A stretch of 17,329 nt of DNA, from the IMG/VR virus record IMGVR_UViG_2639763139_000009; one strand, written 5' to 3'. The notes under the pieces are model-generated. The model ran no database searches. It saw nothing but the letters and a program-made list of their open reading frames with translations, and was not told the origin of the DNA. Origin of the DNA: a virus (lineage: Duplodnaviria; Heunggongvirae; Uroviricota; Caudoviricetes). A program made the position numbers and the translations under genes. How positions within the stretch are numbered: position 1 is the stretch's first letter; each line of letters opens with the position of its first letter. Positions 5,174 through 14,895 of the stretch are shown one piece after another.

Positions 5174-5835
5174 CTACTATTACCAAAGAGCGACTGCAAT
5201 GGCTGGCTAACATTTCTGGCCGCGATGATATTGACGATATAGACGGCGGTGAAATTCGTGAACTGGCGCTTATCGCTCTGGCATCACTGGAAGCAGAGCC
5301 TGTAGCGGAATGCATTGTTGAAGATGGGGGCATGTGTATTGACGGGTTCGGTGAGTATGTGGGTCACTCGCTGCCTGATGGAATGCATGAGCTTTATGCT
5401 GCCCCGCGAATGCGACAACCTGATGGATGGAAAGCCGTAGCTGTAGCGTGGAAGGTGACGTTTACTCAAGTTGACCAGGAATCTAATACGTTCACTGCTA
5501 TATATTTTTACAAAGCGGAAGTTGAGCGTTGGGTACGACTGCATAAAGCATGTGATTTTCGGGCAGATATAACACCGCTTTACGCAGCGCCGGCAGTGCC
5601 GGTTGCAGTAAACGACGACATGGCTTACGCATTCCATCACGCACTGTCAGATTCATCGCTTGGCTCTGATGAAATCGAAGAAATTAAAACCGGTTTGCGT
5701 GCTGCCTTTGCCAACGTCACTATCCAACCAGAGCCGATAGTGCCGGATGAAATCGGGCCAAACGATAGTAATACGTTTGATTATGTTGATGGCTGGAACG
5801 CCTGCCGCGCTGCCATGCTTAAGGGAGATAAATAA
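5170..5835 (+). CDS. hypothetical phage protein
   Basis: 221-aa ORF, translationally coupled with its neighbours on both sides (ATGA and TAATG overlaps). Confidence 0.6.
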   Translation: MTTITKERLQWLANISGRDDIDDIDGGEIRELALIALASLEAEPVAECIVEDGGMCIDGFGEYVGHSLPDGMHELYAAPRMRQPDGWKAVAVAWKVTFTQVDQESNTFTAIYFYKAEVERWVRLHKACDFRADITPLYAAPAVPVAVNDDMAYAFHHALSDSSLGSDEIEEIKTGLRAAFANVTIQPEPIVPDEIGPNDSNTFDYVDGWNACRAAMLKGDK

Positions 5836-6200
5836 TGATTAATCGAACCAAACTGGAGCACATTCTCGAATATGCCAGGCAGCAGAAATGTATTGGGCAA
5901 CTTTGTAAAATTCCACCAGGAGATATGGTTGAAATCGTGGAAATGGCCATGCGTAAGGCTGGCAACTCTCCGGTAACTCTGGCTGGCTGGATAAGCTGTA
6001 GTGATGCAGTTCCTGCTGAATATTGCGATGTGATTCTTCTCGATGATCTCGGGAATGTATTCCCCGGTTCCTGGGATAAGGTTTTTTGCCCCACTCGTGG
6101 CGGGAATAAGATGGCTTTTGTGGACAAAGACGGCGTTGAAGTAGAGAGCTCAACTCACTGGATGCCGCTACCGGAACCACCGCAGGAGGTGAATCAATGA
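5835..6200 (+). CDS. DUF551-like phage protein
   Basis: C-terminal motif GWISCSDAVP...HWMPLPEPP resembles the DUF551 signature (WISV.D.LP...WMPLP.PP) as I recall it. Confidence 0.55.
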   Translation: MINRTKLEHILEYARQQKCIGQLCKIPPGDMVEIVEMAMRKAGNSPVTLAGWISCSDAVPAEYCDVILLDDLGNVFPGSWDKVFCPTRGGNKMAFVDKDGVEVESSTHWMPLPEPPQEVNQ

Positions 6201-7298: not shown

Positions 7299-7315
7299 TA
7301 GGTAATGACTCCAAC

Positions 7316-7819
7316 TTACTGATAGTGTTTTATGTTCAGATAATGCCCGATGACCTTGTCATGCAGCTCCACCGATTTTGAGAACGACAGTGACTTCCGT
7401 CCCAGCCTTGCCAGATGTTGTCTCAGATTCAGATTATGTCGCTCAATGCGCTGAGTGTAACGCTTGCTGATAACGTGCAGCTTTCCCTTCAGGCGTGATT
7501 CATACAGCGGCCAGCCATCCGTCATCCATACCACGACCTCAAAGGCCGACAGCAGGCTCAGAAGACGCTCCAGTGTGGCCAGAGTGCGTTCACCGAAGAC
7601 GTGCGCCACAACCGTCCTCCGTATCCTGTCATACGCGTAAAACAGCCAGCGCTGACGTGATTTAGCACCGACGTAGCCCCAATGTTCGTCCATTTCAGCG
7701 CAGACAATCACATCACTGCCCGGTTGTATGCGCGAGGTTACCGACTGCGGCCTGAGTTTTTTAAGTGACGTAAAACCGTGTTGAGGCCAACGCCCATAAT
7801 GCGTGCACTGGCGCGACAT
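7316..7819 (-). CDS. insB: IS1 InsB (transposase expressed as InsAB fusion by frameshift)
   Basis: 167-aa ORF overlapping the insA 3' end, typical IS1 organisation. Confidence 0.93.
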
Positions 7820-8013
7820 CCGACGCCATTCATGGCCATATCAATGATTTTCTGGTGCGTACCGGGCTGAGAGGCGGTGTAAGTGAACTGTAGTTGCCAT
7901 GTTTTACGGCAATGAGAGCAGAGATAGCGCTGATGTCCGGCAGTGCTTTTGCCGTTACGCACCACGCCTTCAGTAGCGGAGCAGGAAGGACATCTGATGG
8001 AAATGGAAGCCAC
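7738..8013 (-). CDS. insA: IS1 InsA
   Basis: 91-aa zinc-finger protein [40 protein letters not shown]... Confidence 0.93.
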
Positions 8014-8146
8014 GCAAGCACCTTAAAATCACCATCATACACTAAATCAGTAAGTTGGCAGCATTACCCTGTTAGTATTGGCATTAATTCTGGTATACTA
8101 CATAACGGGCTGAACACCCATTCTACTGCGCCAGCGGAGAACTACG

Positions 8147-9776: not shown

Positions 9777-9853
9777 GGCCCTTTAGCTCAGTTGGTCAGA
9801 GCGAGCGACTCATAATCGCCAGGTCGCTGGTTCAAGTCCAGCAAGGGCCACCA
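9777..9853 (+). tRNA. tRNA with anticodon CAU, ileX/ileZ-like (tRNA-Ile2 if lysidine-modified, otherwise Met)
   Basis: Manual cloverleaf: acceptor ggccctt/aagggcc, D-arm gctc/gagc, anticodon loop ctCATaa, T-loop ttcaagt, encoded CCA. Confidence 0.85.
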
Positions 9854-9854
9854 A

Positions 9855-9931
9855 CCACCACTAGCTCATCCGGATAGAGCATCAACCTTCTAAGTTGACG
9901 GTGCGAGGTTCGAGTCCTCGGTGGTGGGCCA
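9855..9931 (+). tRNA. tRNA-Arg (anticodon UCU)
   Basis: Acceptor ccaccac/gtggtgg, anticodon stem tcaac/gttga with loop ctTCTaa, T-arm cgagg-ttcgagt-cctcg, encoded CCA. Confidence 0.85.
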
Positions 9932-9933
9932 GC

Positions 9934-10009
<76 letters not shown>

Positions 10010-10012
10010 TAT

Positions 10013-10087
<75 letters not shown>

Positions 10088-10201: not shown

Positions 10202-11806
10202 ATGATTCAGCTATCCAGTAGTCACAAACTTCCAGCAGTCTACTATCTCTACCAGCGTAACGGCGTCTACTACTTCCGTCTTAGGGTCAGACAATCAAAC
10301 AATGATAGAATGACCTCAATATCATTACGGACCAAGGATAGACGCACCGCTATGGCTTACTCAAGGCACATAAAGGCAGCACTCAAGGCAATACACGCAG
10401 ACAGACCCAACGCTACCTATGAGGAAATGAGGGAACACCTTAAGGACATCGCTGAGTGTGAACTGTCTATGGGCCGTTCAGATCTCTTTGAGCCTGACAT
10501 GAGGGATATCTACCGGGACCAATACGGAGAACTTGGTGAGAGCCTTACCGATGCTCTGGCTAGTGAGCCGCTAAGCATTGACCAGCATCGTTACATCAAT
10601 GAGGCCCTGAAGGTGCTAAAAGCCTGTATGAGGCGTATCGAAGCGGGAGACAGTCAGCCTCTGATAGATTACGTCGATCTTTTTAATGATATTGATAGGC
10701 AAGATAACCAAGCAGACTCTGTGTCCCTATCTGTTAATGCTCCAGAAGTAAAACCAGAAGTTACGCCTAGCATTACCATAGCGAGCCTCTTTGAGCAATA
10801 CGAAGCGGAGAACTATCAGAACTGGAAGCCTGCAACCTTAAGGGAAAACAAGGCGTCACACGCTGCGTTAATCGAAATATTCGACCATCTGGGTCTCAAT
10901 GCAGACGCTAACAGGGCTGACATGCTTAGGGTCCGTGATGTGCTCCAGCAGTTACCTAGGAACCGTAAGCAGCGCTTCAAGGATGTCCCACTTGCTGACC
11001 TGTTGAGCCGTGAAGATAAGACAGATTGTCTGGATGTCGTTACCATCAACAACAAGTATCTTATTAAGATGGCTGCTGTCTTTAGGTGGGCTGTGCGCAA
11101 TGACTTGATTAAAAAGAACATGACTGAGGGTCTGGAGCTTAAAGTCCCTCAGCGTAAAGCCTCAGGGGCCCGTAACGCCTTCTCTACGGAGCAGGTGGGG
11201 CAACTACTGGTCGCAGCTAAGGCATACTCTCAGAAGACCTCTGGTAAGCCGTATCATTATTATGTTACCGCCTTGGCTGCTATCACTGGGGCGAGACTCA
11301 ATGAAATAGCCCAACTACAGGTCAAAGACGTCAGGACCACTGAGGCGGGAACCGTTTATATTCATATCAATGAAGACGATAGTAGTCTACCCGGTAAGAG
11401 CATCAAGAACGCTCATAGTGACCGCTGTGTGCCTCTGGTCGATGGGGCCTATGGTTTTATATTGGCTGACTTTATGGCGCTTGTAGAGACCCGTAGAGGC
11501 GCTGACGGTGATGACGCTATGGTGTTCGATGGTCTGCGTCTCATGAAGAACGGTTACGGTGAGCAGGTGAGTAAATGGTTTAATCGGACGTTGTTGCCTA
11601 AAGTCCTCGTAGACCGTAGCGGCTTAGCGTTTCACTCGTTTAGACATACAGTTGCGACCCAGTTAAAACAACATGGGGTCGAGTTGGCGTATGCACAGGC
11701 GATCATGGGGCATAGTTCAGGGTCTATTACTTACGACCGTTATGCTAAAGAGGTCGAGGTTGATAGGCTGGTCAATGTGATGGCTGATGTTTATAAGGAG
11801 ACCTAG
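10202..11806 (+). CDS. int: tyrosine site-specific integrase (534 aa, large form with extended central region)
   Basis: N-terminal arm-type motif VYYFRLRV. Catalytic-domain motifs TGARLNEIAQL, HSFRHTVATQL and the C-terminal ITYDRYAKE tyrosine. Starts 115 bp after the tRNA-Gly. Confidence 0.85.
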   Translation: MIQLSSSHKLPAVYYLYQRNGVYYFRLRVRQSNNDRMTSISLRTKDRRTAMAYSRHIKAALKAIHADRPNATYEEMREHLKDIAECELSMGRSDLFEPDMRDIYRDQYGELGESLTDALASEPLSIDQHRYINEALKVLKACMRRIEAGDSQPLIDYVDLFNDIDRQDNQADSVSLSVNAPEVKPEVTPSITIASLFEQYEAENYQNWKPATLRENKASHAALIEIFDHLGLNADANRADMLRVRDVLQQLPRNRKQRFKDVPLADLLSREDKTDCLDVVTINNKYLIKMAAVFRWAVRNDLIKKNMTEGLELKVPQRKASGARNAFSTEQVGQLLVAAKAYSQKTSGKPYHYYVTALAAITGARLNEIAQLQVKDVRTTEAGTVYIHINEDDSSLPGKSIKNAHSDRCVPLVDGAYGFILADFMALVETRRGADGDDAMVFDGLRLMKNGYGEQVSKWFNRTLLPKVLVDRSGLAFHSFRHTVATQLKQHGVELAYAQAIMGHSSGSITYDRYAKEVEVDRLVNVMADVYKET

Positions 11807-11893
11807 AGGAGACCATAGTCTAGGATGACACTTACTACAGACCTGTGTGGTCATGTTTTTGACTCATAGTTTTCTCTACTTGTCAAGGATAAT

Positions 11894-11916
11894 TAATACG
11901 ACTCACTATAGGGAGA
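11894..11916 (+). promoter_or_regulatory. bacteriophage T7 RNA polymerase promoter, exact 23/23 match to the class III consensus TAATACGACTCACTATAGGGAGA (+1 at G 11911)
   Basis: Direct read of the sequence at 11894-11916. Oriented toward the AT-rich tract, the repeats and the Rha-like gene. Confidence 0.8.
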
Positions 11917-12109
11917 AGGGACACAAAAAGTTTTCTCTTCTAGGACAACTAACCGTAACTTATCGCATCCTTTCAGGGGCGGGATGACCAATTACAGACA
12001 CCAAGCGTTCTACTTAAAGTGAATGCTTCCTGTGTGCTCTGGGTCAGTCGATAAGTGAATAGCAATAAGACACAATCATCTTAATTATGGTCTCTAGTCC
12101 CTACAGGGG

Positions 12110-12205
12110 CTTAACTTAAAGTTAACTTAAAGACACAATTAGAGATTAACTTTAAGTATTAAATAAAAGATTTAATTAAAGACCAATTAAAGATTAACTC
12201 TAAGG
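12110..12205. other. AT-rich tract with reiterated TTAAAG / AACTTAAAG motifs, about 200 bp downstream of the T7-type promoter
   Basis: cttaacttaaagttaacttaaagacacaattagagattaactttaagtattaaataaaagatttaattaaagaccaattaaagattaactctaaggg. Composition and motifs recall the region following T7 promoter phi1.1B, i.e. the primary replication origin (from memory, not aligned). Confidence 0.5.
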
Positions 12206-12250
12206 GAATACCTTAAGGGGTGATGATATTTATAATAATCAATCACCAAA

Positions 12251-12350
12251 CCTATAGGTCTTTTCTAGGGTCTCTCTATAGGTCTTCTCTATGGTCCTCT
12301 ATGGTCCTCTATGGTCCTCTATGGTCCTCTATGGTCCTCTATGGCCCTGT
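12251..12350. repeat. tandem direct repeats: 5 perfect copies of atggtcctct (12291-12340) flanked by degenerate copies
   Basis: Seen directly. Upstream degenerate units ctataggtctt(t/c)tct and downstream atggccctgt. Confidence 0.9.
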
Positions 12351-12567
12351 ACGTCATTCTTTAGGATGCCCTGTAGTTTCGTATAGCCTGATGCCTAGAG
12401 AGACCCTCCCAGTAGCTCCGCACAGCTACATCGTCATCATCATAGTATTCAATCTCAAAGTCATTCTGTTTGCATCCTGTTGTCCTGCTGGTCTCCCTTC
12501 GCTTGGGGACTTTGAGTAGGTCAGTGGGGGTGCGACTTCAGGGTGCAAACAAAAAGGAAATCAAGCG

Positions 12568-12723
12568 ATGTCTCAACAACCACAACAACCACAACAAGAA
12601 ATCAGCATCATTAACCTCGACCAGCTTGTGTCCATGACCTCAGTTGAAATTGCTGAGCTGACAGGCAAGGAGCACCGAAATGTCCTTCGTGATATTCGTA
12701 AGATGCTCGAAGAACTTAACGCG
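12568..12723 (+). pseudogene. Rha-like phage regulatory protein gene, N-terminal 52 codons only, truncated by IS1
   Basis: MSQQPQQPQQEISIINLDQLVSMTSVEIAELTGKEHRNVLRDIRKMLEEL resembles the Phage_pRha N-terminal motif (..EIAELTGK.H..V.RDIR..) as recalled. The reading frame runs into the IS1 end at 12724. RBS aaggaaa. Confidence 0.5.
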
Positions 12724-12778
12724 GGTAATGCTGCCAACTTACTGATTTAGTGTATGATGGTGATTTTAAGGTGCTTGC

Positions 12779-13054
12779 GTGGCTTCCATTTCCATCAGAT
12801 GTCCTTCCTGCTCCGCTACTGAAGGCGTGGTGCGTAACGGCAAAAGCACTGCCGGACATCAGCGCTATCTCTGCTCTCATTGCCGTAAAACATGGCAACT
12901 ACAGTTCACTTACACCGCCTCTCAGCCCGGTACGCACCAGAAAATCATTGATATGGCCATGAATGGCGTCGGATGTCGCGCCAGTGCACGCATTATGGGC
13001 GTTGGCCTCAACACGGTTTTACGTCACTTAAAAAACTCAGGCCGCAGTCGGTAA
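12779..13054 (+). CDS. insA: IS1 InsA
   Basis: Protein identical to the InsA of the first IS1 copy. Confidence 0.93.
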
Positions 13055-13476
13055 CCTCGCGCATACAACCGGGCAGTGATGTGATTGTCTGCGCTGAAAT
13101 GGACGAACATTGGGGCTACGTCGGTGCTAAATCACGTCAGCGCTGGCTGTTTTACGCGTATGACAGGATACGGAGGACGGTTGTGGCGCACGTCTTCGGT
13201 GAACGCACTCTGGCCACACTGGAGCGTCTTCTGAGCCTGCTGTCGGCCTTTGAGGTCGTGGTATGGATGACGGATGGCTGGCCGCTGTATGAATCACGCC
13301 TGAAGGGAAAGCTGCACGTTATCAGCAAGCGTTACACTCAGCGCATTGAGCGACATAATCTGAATCTGAGACAACATCTGGCAAGGCTGGGACGGAAGTC
13401 ACTGTCGTTCTCAAAATCGGTGGAGCTGCATGACAAGGTCATCGGGCATTATCTGAACATAAAACACTATCAGTAA
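12973..13476 (+). CDS. insB: IS1 InsB
   Basis: Protein identical to the InsB of the first IS1 copy. Confidence 0.93.
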
Positions 13477-13491
13477 GTTGGAGTCATTACC

Positions 13492-14440
13492 AAAAAAAGC
13501 AACAGCGTATTTTGCACAGGAGTCGCTGAAAAATACGCGTTAATCGAACAATGGCGACAACAATTTCCCATTGAAGCGATGTGTCAGGTATTTGGTGTAT
13601 CCAGGAGCGGTTATTACAACTGGGTACAGCATGAACCCTCAGACAGAAAACAAAGTGATGAGCGGCTAAAACTGGAGATTAAGGTGGCACATATCCGCAC
13701 TCGCGAAACATATGGAACCCGGCGGCTCCAGACGGAGCTGGCAGAGAATGGCATCATCGTTGGTCGTGACCGACTGGCACGTCTTCGTAAGGAGCTGAGG
13801 CTACGCTGTAAGCAGAAACGCAAGTTCAGAGCGACTACGAACCCGAACCACAATCTGCCAGTTGCGCCAAATCTGCTGAACCAGACGTTCGCTCCTACAG
13901 CACCAAATCAGGTCTGGGTGGCGGACCTGACGTATGTTGCCACACAGGAGGGATGGTTGTACCTCGCTGGCATCAAAGATGTTTATACGTGCGAAATTGT
14001 CGGCTACGCCATGGGAGAGCGCATGACAAAAGAGCTGACAGGTAAAGCCCTGTTTATGGCGCTCAGGAGCCAGCGCCCACCTGCCGGGCTAATCCACCAC
14101 TCTGATCGAGGTTCACAGTACTGCGCATACGATTACCGGGTCATACAGGAGCAGTCTGGTCTGAAAACATCAATGTCGCGTAAAGGTAACTGTTACGACA
14201 ACGCTCCGATGGAAAGCTTCTGGGGAACGCTGAAAAATGAGAGCCTGAGCCACTATCGTTTTAATAACCGGGATGAAGCCATCTCAGTAATACGGGAATA
14301 CATTGAGATTTTCTACAATCGTCAGCGTCGTCACTCTCGTCTGGGGAATATCTCCCCGGCAGCCTTCAGGGAAAAATATCATCAGATGGCTGCTTAAAAA
14401 AAGAACAAATGGTAGTGTCCGCTATTGCCAGTACACCTCA
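13492..14440 (+). mobile_element. IS600, 5'-truncated copy (lacks the left IR and most of orfA), right IR ending ...gtacacctca at 14440
   Basis: 13492..13543 equals the reverse complement of window 1..52. orfB follows. The terminus resembles the IS600 left IR in inverted form (tgaggt...cggacact). Confidence 0.9.
13579..14397 (+). CDS. IS600 OrfB transposase (DDE integrase core)
   Basis: 272-aa ORF with the IS3-family DDE region (WVADLTY...HSDRGSQY...ESFWGTLKNE). Normally expressed as an OrfAB fusion by -1 frameshift at the A7G motif at 13492-13499. Confidence 0.9.
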   Translation: MCQVFGVSRSGYYNWVQHEPSDRKQSDERLKLEIKVAHIRTRETYGTRRLQTELAENGIIVGRDRLARLRKELRLRCKQKRKFRATTNPNHNLPVAPNLLNQTFAPTAPNQVWVADLTYVATQEGWLYLAGIKDVYTCEIVGYAMGERMTKELTGKALFMALRSQRPPAGLIHHSDRGSQYCAYDYRVIQEQSGLKTSMSRKGNCYDNAPMESFWGTLKNESLSHYRFNNRDEAISVIREYIEIFYNRQRRHSRLGNISPAAFREKYHQMAA

Positions 14441-14543
14441 GTTAATCCAATATCTCCCCGGCAGCCTTCAGGGAAAAATATCATCAGATGGCTGCTTAAA
14501 AAAAGAACAAATGGTAGTGTCCGCTATTGCCAGTACACCTCAG
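14347..14543 (+). repeat. tandem duplication (two ~95-bp copies, offset 102 bp) of the IS600 3' end, including the orfB 3' codons and the right inverted repeat
   Basis: Identical 93-nt block atctccccggcagcc...gccagtacacctcagt at 14350-14442 and 14452-14544; each copy is followed by a near-identical short flank (gttaatcca vs gtaatcca). Confidence 0.9.
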
Positions 14544-14895
14544 TAATCCATCCAGGCCTGTTGTTGCAGAGCTTGGCGATGATTCAGGCTGGCATTTTTT
14601 CAGCCAGAGAAACCCGGATAACAGCATAGTGTTCACTGTTAACGGACAGGTAATTCCGTTAAATTACGGAAACTTCGATGCCCGCTATAAATATCGAACA
14701 GAGGGGGTACAGGATGTACGGTATGGCCATGAAATGTATTACAGCCCCGGCAGTAACACCGTTTCGTGGAGATTTTGCGCACCTTCGGGACACGGGCTGT
14801 CAGGGATGGCGATATCGGATACCGGCCGTAACTCAGCGGATAACGTTGACGGTGTGTATTACCGACCACTGCAAAAACTGATTAATGGCACCTAG
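14543..14895 (+). pseudogene. side tail fibre protein, C-terminal fragment only (N-terminus removed at the IS600 boundary)
   Basis: RPVVAELGDDSGWHFFSQRNPDNSIVFTVNGQ...YRPLQKLINGT matches the conserved C-terminus of P2 gpH / lambda Stf-type fibres as recalled. The reading frame is open back into the IS600 end with no native start. Confidence 0.7.

Follow-up and report, generated by a model that had tools for sequence, protein, structure and literature searches.

Bacteriophage T7 is the virulent phage of the textbooks, the most widely used expression system derives from it, and strictly lytic Autographiviridae are favoured for therapy on the assumption that they do not transduce. We know of no natural parasite of T7. 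Among the described systems that come closest to what is reported here, plasmids bearing a T7 origin, a pac site and a terminal repeat are replicated, packaged and transduced by T7 (PMC13236587, which cites Chung and Hinkle 1990), and the PICMI satellites of the Vibrionaceae integrate beside fis, need their own int, AlpA and primase, and are packaged as concatemers (PMC10803314). The subject of this study is a stretch of the IMG/VR record IMGVR_UViG_2639763139_000009, a DNA of 17,329 nucleotides filed under Caudoviricetes and called the window from here on, in which a perfect T7 promoter is followed by an AT-rich tract and an array of short tandem repeats. Positions 11894-12356 lie in an integrase-bearing island and, in the reading that we favour with moderate confidence, form the replication module, a helper-dependent origin, of a small integrative element that is a satellite of T7-group phages.

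The promoter and the AT-rich tract

The elements of this module and its immediate surroundings are as follows.

11844..11893, plus strand: module preceding the promoter (gtggtcatgtttttgactcatagttttctctacttgtcaagg...), which in relatives is duplicated along with it
11894-11916, plus strand: T7 class III promoter TAATACGACTCACTATAGGGAGA, perfect over 23 nt, transcription start at 11911
11950..12075, plus strand: leader TAACCGTAACTTATCGCATCCTTTCAGGGGCGGGATGACC...GGTCAGTCGATAAGTGAATAGCAA, highly conserved, about 110-125 nt
12098..12109, plus strand: TCCCTACAGGGG, directly abutting the AT-rich tract
12110..12215, plus strand: AT-rich tract, TTAAAG-type motifs at intervals of 11-13 bp, the putative site of unwinding and priming in a T7-type origin
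12219..12247, plus strand: imperfect inverted repeat (hairpin) GGTGATGATATTTATAATAATCAATCACC, conserved in E. coli and Klebsiella relatives
12252..12356, plus strand: hypervariable repeats CTATAGGTCTT, CTAGGGTCTCT, (CTATGGTCCT)x5 and CTATGGCCCT
12357..12567, plus strand: untranslated region upstream of the first downstream gene, alignable with the relatives L002, L003 and L008 up to the start codon

No match to the perfect T7 promoter arose in 200 shuffles. Together with its initial transcribed sequence the promoter most resembles phiOR of T7 (42 nt, 86% match to T7 39209-39250), and it is kept, in one or two copies, in the E. coli relatives L001 to L003, which are about 86% identical overall. 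L001 and L003 have two promoter units, each with its own gtggtcatgtttttgactcatagttttctctacttgtcaagg module.

The tract stands out in composition as well as in motif content. Over 12110-12205 the GC content is 20.8%, against 49.3% for the window, and these are the lowest-GC 96 bp of all 17.3 kb. Eight of the 22 TTAAAG, TTTAAG, TTAGAG, TCTAAG and CTTAAG motifs of the window fall within 12105-12215 at a spacing of 11-13 bp, as do four of its seven exact copies of TTAAAG; in composition-matched shuffles the motif count averaged 0.3 and never rose above 3, whereas 7 were observed, a value that none of 5000 reached. Period-11 and period-25 arrays are reported at 12111-12195 by Tandem Repeats Finder (TRF). 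A first-pass annotation, made from the letters of the DNA alone, had described an AT-rich block of about 95 bp full of TTAAAG motifs about 200 bp past the promoter, and both the block and its position, about 200 nt from the transcription start at 11911, are borne out.

A blind blastn search with 12095-12275 as the query against 2.3 Gb of phage genomes proved informative as to the relationships of the tract, its significant matches all being to T7-like phages and outside their coding sequence. The Teseptimaviruses concerned, which are Stenotrophomonas phage IME15 (84.6% over 51 nt, E 9e-5), Escherichia phage Ebrios (E 1e-3) and Tarrare (E 1e-2), match between the RNA polymerase gene (gene 1) and gene 1.1, in the intergenic region that in T7 holds the primary origin, and the alignment is colinear with T7 5925-6000. 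When the 761-nt intergenic region of the window (11807-12567) was compared with T7 alone, the best match outside promoters was nt 5935-5995, the AT-rich region of the origin. Kvp1, pO103 and Serratia phage 2050H2 gave weaker matches to the tract within their first ~0.6 kb, a part of the genome where T7 has phiOL and an AT-rich stretch. The similarity emerged only when the tract alone served as the query and the threshold was relaxed; blastn of 11850-12560 against phages at E<=1e-5 matched the promoter alone, in Salmonella phage Vi06. These alignments suggest that the tract and the AT-rich half of Teseptimavirus origins are homologous. The likeness to the region after phi1.1A/B, which the first-pass annotation had pointed out, is upheld by the T7 5935-5995 match and by the Teseptimavirus matches at E 9e-5 to 1e-2, and the significant alignments to T7-group origins take away the force of its own proposed objection, that none might be found.

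In its plan the module follows the T7 primary origin (phi1.1A/phi1.1B plus the AT-rich region, ~5830-6000), where a promoter for the T7 polymerase is likewise followed by an AT-rich tract in the same orientation, and both tracts are rich in TTAAG, TTAAAG and AATTAGAG motifs. T7-group origins also share with it the primase recognition pentamers on the displaced strand downstream. It differs from the T7 primary origin in that the tract lies in a bacterial chromosome, the promoter has the class III consensus and is phiOR-like, a conserved leader of ~195 nt separates promoter and tract, and the tract is followed by a conserved hairpin and hypervariable repeats. Of the features expected of a T7-type origin, a phage-polymerase promoter pointing in, sequence relatedness, and primase sites on the displaced strand are found here, the last of them not conserved in L002 and L003. 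The earlier proposal that promoter and AT-rich region together make up a T7-type origin stands as far as homology and context are concerned; what does not carry over is adjacency, since the tract is ~195 nt off and not next to the promoter as in T7. The origin reading is strengthened because relatives carry other phage-polymerase promoters, both terminal-repeat boundaries and a capsid-like gene. An equivalent AT-rich tract with TTAAAG or CCTAAAG motifs lies downstream of the promoters in most relatives, and it is made of units of ~25-50 bp in variable number, giving ~95 bp here and ~190 bp in L001.

The leader is almost invariant in Shigella, Klebsiella, Rouxiella, Morganella and Edaphovirga. 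It has no phage homologue, and an Rfam scan of 11700-12800 (E<=1) gave no match to it or to any other part of that range. Folding predictions assign unusually strong structure (z -4.4) to the RNA that starts at the T7 promoter. Small open reading frames (ORFs) in the leader were dropped, their lengths not being conserved, and a scan for sigma-70 promoters and intrinsic terminators gave no promoter above shuffle level and no terminator. The TCCCTACAGGGG element aligns with the ...CACTATAGG(A/G)GA ends of phi1.1B-type promoters, its specificity region being unlike that of T7, and the CAGGGGC before the tract is conserved in relatives; the element is possibly a remnant of a promoter initiation region. 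For the hairpin GGTGATGATATTTATAATAATCAATCACC, comparison with T7 alone gave a weak similarity, in inverted orientation, to T7 39316-39365, a hairpin between phiOR and gene 19.5 (E 0.027).

Between the repeats and the first downstream gene, L002 and L003 have an extra insert with a degenerate T7-like promoter. At L002 11540-11585 and L003 11680-11725 three tandem copies of AATCAATACG run into CAATACGACTTACTAATAGGAGA, the degenerate promoter in question, which lies downstream of the origin; in Klebsiella-type islands the corresponding position is taken by a true second promoter. The sequence ATTCTGTT/ATCCTGTT at 12460-12485 was considered as a class II pause site and dropped, being inexact and not conserved in Klebsiella.

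The island family and its helper-like signals

The island is delimited in the window by the following features.

10013..10087, plus strand: prophage-borne tRNA-Gly(TCC) found by ARAGORN, its 3' end being the attL of the island
10202..11806, plus strand: tyrosine integrase of 534 amino acids, PF00589 and PF20172
10717..10736, plus strand: exact copy of T7 nt 149-168, CTCTGTGTCCCT/ATCTGTTA (slash at the end of the terminal repeat), inside the integrase gene and coding for SVSLSVN
12568..12723, plus strand: 5' fragment of a Rha-family gene, 89% identical to L001 18076-18192 (annotated Rha family, PF09669)

The integrase is 100% identical to a site-specific integrase of Shigella flexneri, and the window is a remnant of an S. 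flexneri lambdoid prophage with many insertion sequences (IS). The sequence that follows GCCCGCTCCA in the window is the one that follows the chromosomal glyU tRNA-Gly(CCC) in the E. coli and Klebsiella relatives, where the island is inserted at glyU, beside actS, and closed by an 18-23 bp direct repeat of the tRNA 3' end. Since the target tRNA-Gly(TCC) is prophage-borne and the relatives use chromosomal glyU, the window case is an island nested inside a prophage and the relatives are chromosomal. IS1 (12724-13491, plus strand) cuts the Rha gene after 156 nt. It removed the right part of the island, terminal-repeat-start signal and attR included, and for this reason a search of the window for the attR repeat found none and attL is the only att site there. 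In the family at large an integrase is combined with flanking att repeats, the 18-23 bp tRNA-Gly repeats lying 4.2-7.3 kb apart: islands measured between them are 4.2 kb in L002 and L003, 6.4 kb in L008 (Klebsiella pneumoniae ATCC 13883), and 7.3 kb, including an IS5, in L001 (E. coli 21AR0133).

Homologues of the integrase occur across Enterobacterales at 65-100% identity. The leader and origin module is present in 91 of 5426 complete E. coli genomes (~1.7%), always chromosomal and never annotated, and 25 metagenomic contigs repeat the island architecture with mixed promoter arrays.

The evidence that ties the family to particular phages comes from its promoters. Twenty integrase-anchored loci from other genera were compared; one (L026) ends inside the integrase gene and 19 extend past it. 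A pattern scan found one to four single-subunit-polymerase promoters, on the plus strand and downstream of int, in 17 of the 19, and the pattern overlooked a T7-like promoter in an 18th, from Rouxiella (L010). Promoters downstream of int are likewise present in 23 of the 25 metagenome contigs. The K. pneumoniae ATCC 13883 island carries two AATTAGGGCACACTATAGGGAG promoters and, besides them, one promoter of T7 type and one of a fourth type. All 26 positions of AATTAGGGCACACTATAGGGAG are identical to promoters of the Klebsiella phages K11, KP32 and K5, the sequence is annotated "promoter" in K11, and 176 of the 214 records that match it are Klebsiella phages. The promoter of the Citrobacter island matches Kayfunavirus-type phages (Dev2, SFPH2, EP1) and that of the Proteus island is identical to Vibrio phage ICP3/N4 promoters. 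Judged by these matches, promoter specificity follows the phages of the host, and phage-polymerase promoters would make a plausible helper-specific trigger.

A second set of signals resembles the ends of the T7 genome. The 20-mer copied from T7 149-168 joins the final 12 nt of the terminal repeat to the 8 nt that come next, which together form the concatemer junction, and no occurrence of it is expected by chance. Its core, TC(C/T)CTATCTGT, is a local peak of conservation in an indel-rich linker of the integrase, even in a subfamily of 73% identity, and 17 of the 19 metagenomic contigs spanning this part of the gene have it; the 20-mer is apparently a DNA signal embedded in a reading frame. 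It includes ATCTGTT, the sequence in the T7 concatemer junction at which T7 RNA polymerase pauses. At the other end, blastn of the Klebsiella island against phages gave a match of 45 nt (E 2e-4) in the stretch from the last gene to attR, which falls where the terminal repeat begins in T3, T7M, phiYeO3-12, SH1 and others. Here the block CACAAAAATCTGAG-N4-TATCTAATAGT...CCCCCGTA aligns with T7 ACCATAAAAATCTGAGTGACTA/TCTCACAG... (slash at the repeat boundary). The block precedes attR by 266-284 bp in the islands of E. coli, Klebsiella and the metagenomes and also aligns in those of Pectobacterium and Proteus. Homologues of both T7/T3 boundaries are thus conserved in position in the family, and the window keeps only the 20-mer of the repeat end and junction.

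In an excised circle or concatemer the two boundary signals would bracket ~0.9 kb spanning attP, and the order of elements (repeat, short repeats, promoter, AT-rich origin, genes, repeat) would be that of a T7 concatemer. The ends expected under a packaging model would be CACAAAAATCTGAG-N6/T... and ...GTGTCCCT/ATCTGTT.

The genes of the relatives are arranged in a recurrent order: integrase, an optional DUF4145 gene, the non-coding module, Rha or KilA-N, an ORF of 67-76 amino acids, DUF6971 with a charged helical tail, and a protein of ~375 amino acids. All downstream genes are co-oriented with the promoters. The DUF4145 protein matches the anti-T7 defence gene PD-T7-4 (E 8e-99) and is found between the integrase and the promoter cassette at L008 8624-9256 and in many metagenome contigs; lying upstream of the phage promoters, it is therefore not driven by them. 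Vassallo et al. noted that PD-T7-4 "often overlaps an integrase gene" and gave no more context. The last two genes occupy L008 11149-12837 and L001 20340-21962. With its charged coiled-coil tail the DUF6971 protein is scaffold-like. The ~375-residue family has no Pfam match and was identified by fold comparison alone: for an AlphaFold model of moderate quality (predicted local distance difference test 65.5), all top Foldseek matches in PDB and BFVD were capsid proteins or encapsulins with probability 1.0, and the protein is predicted on this basis to be capsid-like, with an HK97 fold. Apart from this unannotated protein, searches of all island ORFs with Pfam, PHROGs and PADLOC identified only integrase, Rha or KilA-N, DUF6971 and DUF4145 (PD-T7-4), and no polymerase, primase or terminase is encoded by the islands.

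Some further observations concern the surroundings of the island. The tRNA-Gly(TCC) used as its target is the last in a Met/Arg/Thr/Gly tRNA cluster at 9777-10087. A second IS1 copy lies at ~7301-8069 on the minus strand, the IS1 copies are flanked by IS3-family transposase genes (831-2104 and 13579-14397), and at 14347-14550, where the ORF of the IS3-family transposase ends, a 102-bp unit occurs twice in perfect tandem (99% match). In E. coli 21AR0133 a second, unrelated integrase island (L001 22370-32550) stands in tandem with the first, using the same tRNA-Gly att repeat, and the att core is present there in three copies.

Proposed mechanism and competing explanations

The functional steps that we infer from homology, conservation and host-matched exchange of promoters would be these. 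The RNA polymerase of an infecting T7-group phage would start at the perfect T7 promoter of the island, and the transcript would run for ~200 nt through the conserved leader into the AT-rich tract, where the RNA would prime the phage DNA polymerase as at the T7 primary origin. The primase-helicase would load on the displaced plus strand and could prime leftward synthesis at TGGTC or GGGTC sites, which the 10-bp repeats of the window copy might supply in bulk. The cis signals copied from the helper would comprise promoters, origin, and the terminal-repeat end with its ATCTGTT junction inside the integrase gene, and intact relatives would add a copied terminal-repeat start ~270 bp before attR. 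Copies of the island, once excised and concatemerised, could be cleaved at both repeat boundaries and then packaged like miniature T7 genomes, possibly into capsids made or altered by the HK97 protein of the island itself. The window copy, cut by IS1, could at most fire as an origin in place.

A number of points weigh against this reading. The similarity to T7 origins is short (~50-60 nt, 68-85%) and falls in low-complexity DNA. The tract begins ~195 nt past the promoter (~200 nt from the transcription start), in the same orientation, where T7 has spacings between promoter and AT-rich region of ~10 nt (phi1.1B) and ~85 nt (phi1.1A), and in a distant subfamily (L015-L022) the tract is weak or lacking (GC 0.29-0.38). 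The implied terminal repeat of ~0.9 kb compares with 160 bp in T7 and 231 bp in T3. No excisionase was recognised in the islands, and T7 degrades host DNA, which makes the timing of excision and amplification problematic for the model. The 25 metagenome contigs all look integrated, without circular overlaps, and IMG/VR gave three Shigella prophage calls whose layout is identical to that of the window and no excised or virion copy, a negative that is weak given that both collections consist mostly of cellular assemblies. Taking the family as a whole, we regard as evenly balanced the wider proposal that these islands are undescribed, Enterobacterales-wide satellites of 4-6.5 kb that exploit strictly virulent T7-group phages by pure cis-mimicry and use their own HK97 protein and scaffold to build or poison capsids.

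The short tandem repeats downstream of the tract invite a separate explanation. TRF reports a 10-bp array at 12264-12348 (8.1 copies, 90% match), and, as the first-pass annotation had counted, there are exactly five perfect copies of ATGGTCCTCT, with degenerate copies around them from 12252 to ~12356. It is possible, and we put this forward tentatively and for 12252-12356 only, that the repeats are arrays of T7 primase sites ensuring lagging-strand priming on both sides of the origin, an idea that is compatible with the satellite-origin reading. Each GGTC unit of 12252..12356 holds on its plus strand TGGTC or GGGTC, which we take to be T7 primase recognition sequences. Within 11807-12567 there are ten TGGTC, GGGTC or GTGTC sites on the plus strand, five of them inside the 10-bp repeats, and nine on the minus strand, against shuffle means of 3.1 and 1.2. 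The enrichment is 3-7 times the dinucleotide-shuffle frequency on both strands in the window, L001 and L003, and is confined to the minus strand in L002; it is inflated by the repeats being copies of one unit. L001, with ~ten CTAGGGTCTCT units, has GGGTC where the window has TGGTC, and L001 and L003 have GACCA arrays (TGGTC on the minus strand) upstream of their promoters. In T7 itself (L004) the highest minus-strand pentamer density of the genome is at 187-390, just right of the terminal repeat, and the plus-strand density at 39601-39775, just left of it, ties for the highest; these flanking peaks would suit the priming of last Okazaki fragments. The downstream unit of L002 and L003, however, is mostly GTATGGCCCT, which has GGCC without GTC, and this counts both against the generality of the idea and against the origin reading. 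Copy number is unconstrained, helpers with other primase specificities would not use such sites, and CTA(T/G)(A/G)GGTC-type units have too few matches in T7 to show a derivation of the repeats from its short-repeat regions.

Apart from the idea of primase sites, the array behaves like a slippage-prone variable-number repeat. Both repeat unit and copy number differ among Shigella copies that are ~99% identical elsewhere: the window has (CTATGGTCCT)x5, L030 a different mix, and in L028 and L029 an IS is inserted in the array. Relatives have further short tandem arrays upstream of promoters and farther downstream.

An explanation that overlaps with the satellite reading, satellites usually defending their hosts too, is that the island is an infection-triggered defence locus and not a transferable satellite. 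The promoter cassette would then sense the phage polymerase and switch on Rha or KilA-N together with the capsid-like protein as an assembly poison, the origin would amplify gene dosage or drain the replication and transcription machinery of the phage, and the terminal-repeat signals would be terminase decoys. The presence of PD-T7-4 in many islands, the co-orientation of all downstream genes with the promoters, the multi-specificity promoter arrays, which resemble broad sensors, and the lack of any particle-derived copy in IMG/VR or the metagenome contigs are what this explanation would lead one to expect. It is nevertheless unlikely in our view, for PD-T7-4 lies upstream of the promoters, an integrase with intact att repeats and a spread over genera at 65-100% integrase identity fit a mobile element, and both terminal-repeat boundaries are kept at fixed distances from att, which a pure defence locus would not need.

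Less probable still is that the repeats are iterons or sites for a DNA-binding protein of the island, Rha or KilA-N, controlling replication or expression. The units are tandem and each about one helical turn long, the next gene encodes DNA-binding Rha or KilA-N, and Rha-type islands tend to have GGTC units where KilA-N-type islands tend to have GGCC. L030, however, is Rha-type and mixes GGTC and GGCC units, the array tolerates an IS insertion, and unit sequence, length (10-13 bp) and number vary among the Shigella copies. To our knowledge T7-type origins use no iterons. The first-pass annotation had called the repeats iteron-like and proposed comparing their number across strains; that comparison, by revealing their hypervariability, counts against iterons, and with no Rep or initiator gene in any member of the family we rejected them. 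Its other suggestion, that the repeats might be the att site of the island, was abandoned, att being the 3' end of tRNA-Gly.

Finally, the window copy is indeed an IS1-cut remnant, its repeats behave as neutral variable-number repeats and AT-rich horizontally acquired DNA is common, yet it is very improbable that the whole is non-functional debris, whether a decayed integrase-bearing T7-like prophage or old recombination scars with AT-rich DNA and microsatellites of no role, because many genera have islands of the same compact 4-6.5 kb build with their att repeats intact, the promoters match those of current phages perfectly and differ by host, the leader is nearly invariant, the terminal-repeat signals keep fixed distances from att, and genes for RNA polymerase, DNA polymerase and terminase have left no relic.

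Relation to known satellites

In the literature we found no account of satellites of T7 or other Autographiviridae, or of islands with phage-polymerase promoters; subscription journals were thinly covered, so an earlier description is possible. If the satellite reading is right, strictly lytic Autographiviridae could move chromosomal DNA among Enterobacterales such as Shigella, E. coli and Klebsiella. It would also imply a new parasitic strategy, in which the DNA signals of the helper alone are copied and promoter cassettes are swapped to follow local phages. The islands would then offer a minimal packaging system ready for use and would be natural sensors of phage RNA polymerases as well as amplifiers for them, and PD-T7-4 would gain a genomic context. 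Wild chromosomes with a perfect T7 promoter and origin would be relevant, too, whenever T7 RNA polymerase is used in natural isolates.

The T7 phagemids and transducing plasmids (PMC13236587) have the same set of cis elements and need no T7 genes in cis. The island differs from them in being natural and integrase-bearing and in having boundaries ~0.9 kb apart across attP instead of 160 bp. Full-length islands moreover add capsid-like and scaffold-like genes, and the window copy is without the terminal-repeat start.

With PICI, cf-PICI, P4-like elements and PLE the islands share an integrase with a site-specific att, small size, a presumed dependence on a helper, and an anti-phage gene (PD-T7-4). 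Like cf-PICIs, some of the islands would, by the predicted fold, have an HK97-fold capsid protein of their own. The islands differ from these families in having no primase or replicase, AlpA, repressor, terminase small subunit, portal or head-tail genes, in their smaller size (4-6.5 kb), and in that their presumed helpers are strictly virulent T7-group phages. Induction, too, would be of another kind, coming directly from the helper RNA polymerase acting on copied promoters. Among all island ORFs searched with Pfam, PHROGs and PADLOC there was no Sid, Psu or delta and no portal or connector gene, and none of the islands is integrated adjacent to fis. The small HK97 "twilight viruses" are elements distinct from the islands.

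PICMI (PMC10803314) are similar in their minimal gene content, in their presumed virulent helpers and in that the smallest forms are without capsid-remodelling genes, and concatemer packaging would be the likely route for the 4.2-kb members of the island family as well. They differ in that, of int, AlpA and primase, the islands have int only, and that no mimicry of phage promoters, origin or terminal repeat is described for PICMI in that paper. As the islands are without the hallmark genes of P4, PICI, cf-PICI, PLE and PICMI, we file them outside those families: the tract would be an origin of T7 type that occurs in a new setting, and the island that carries it a further form of phage satellite.

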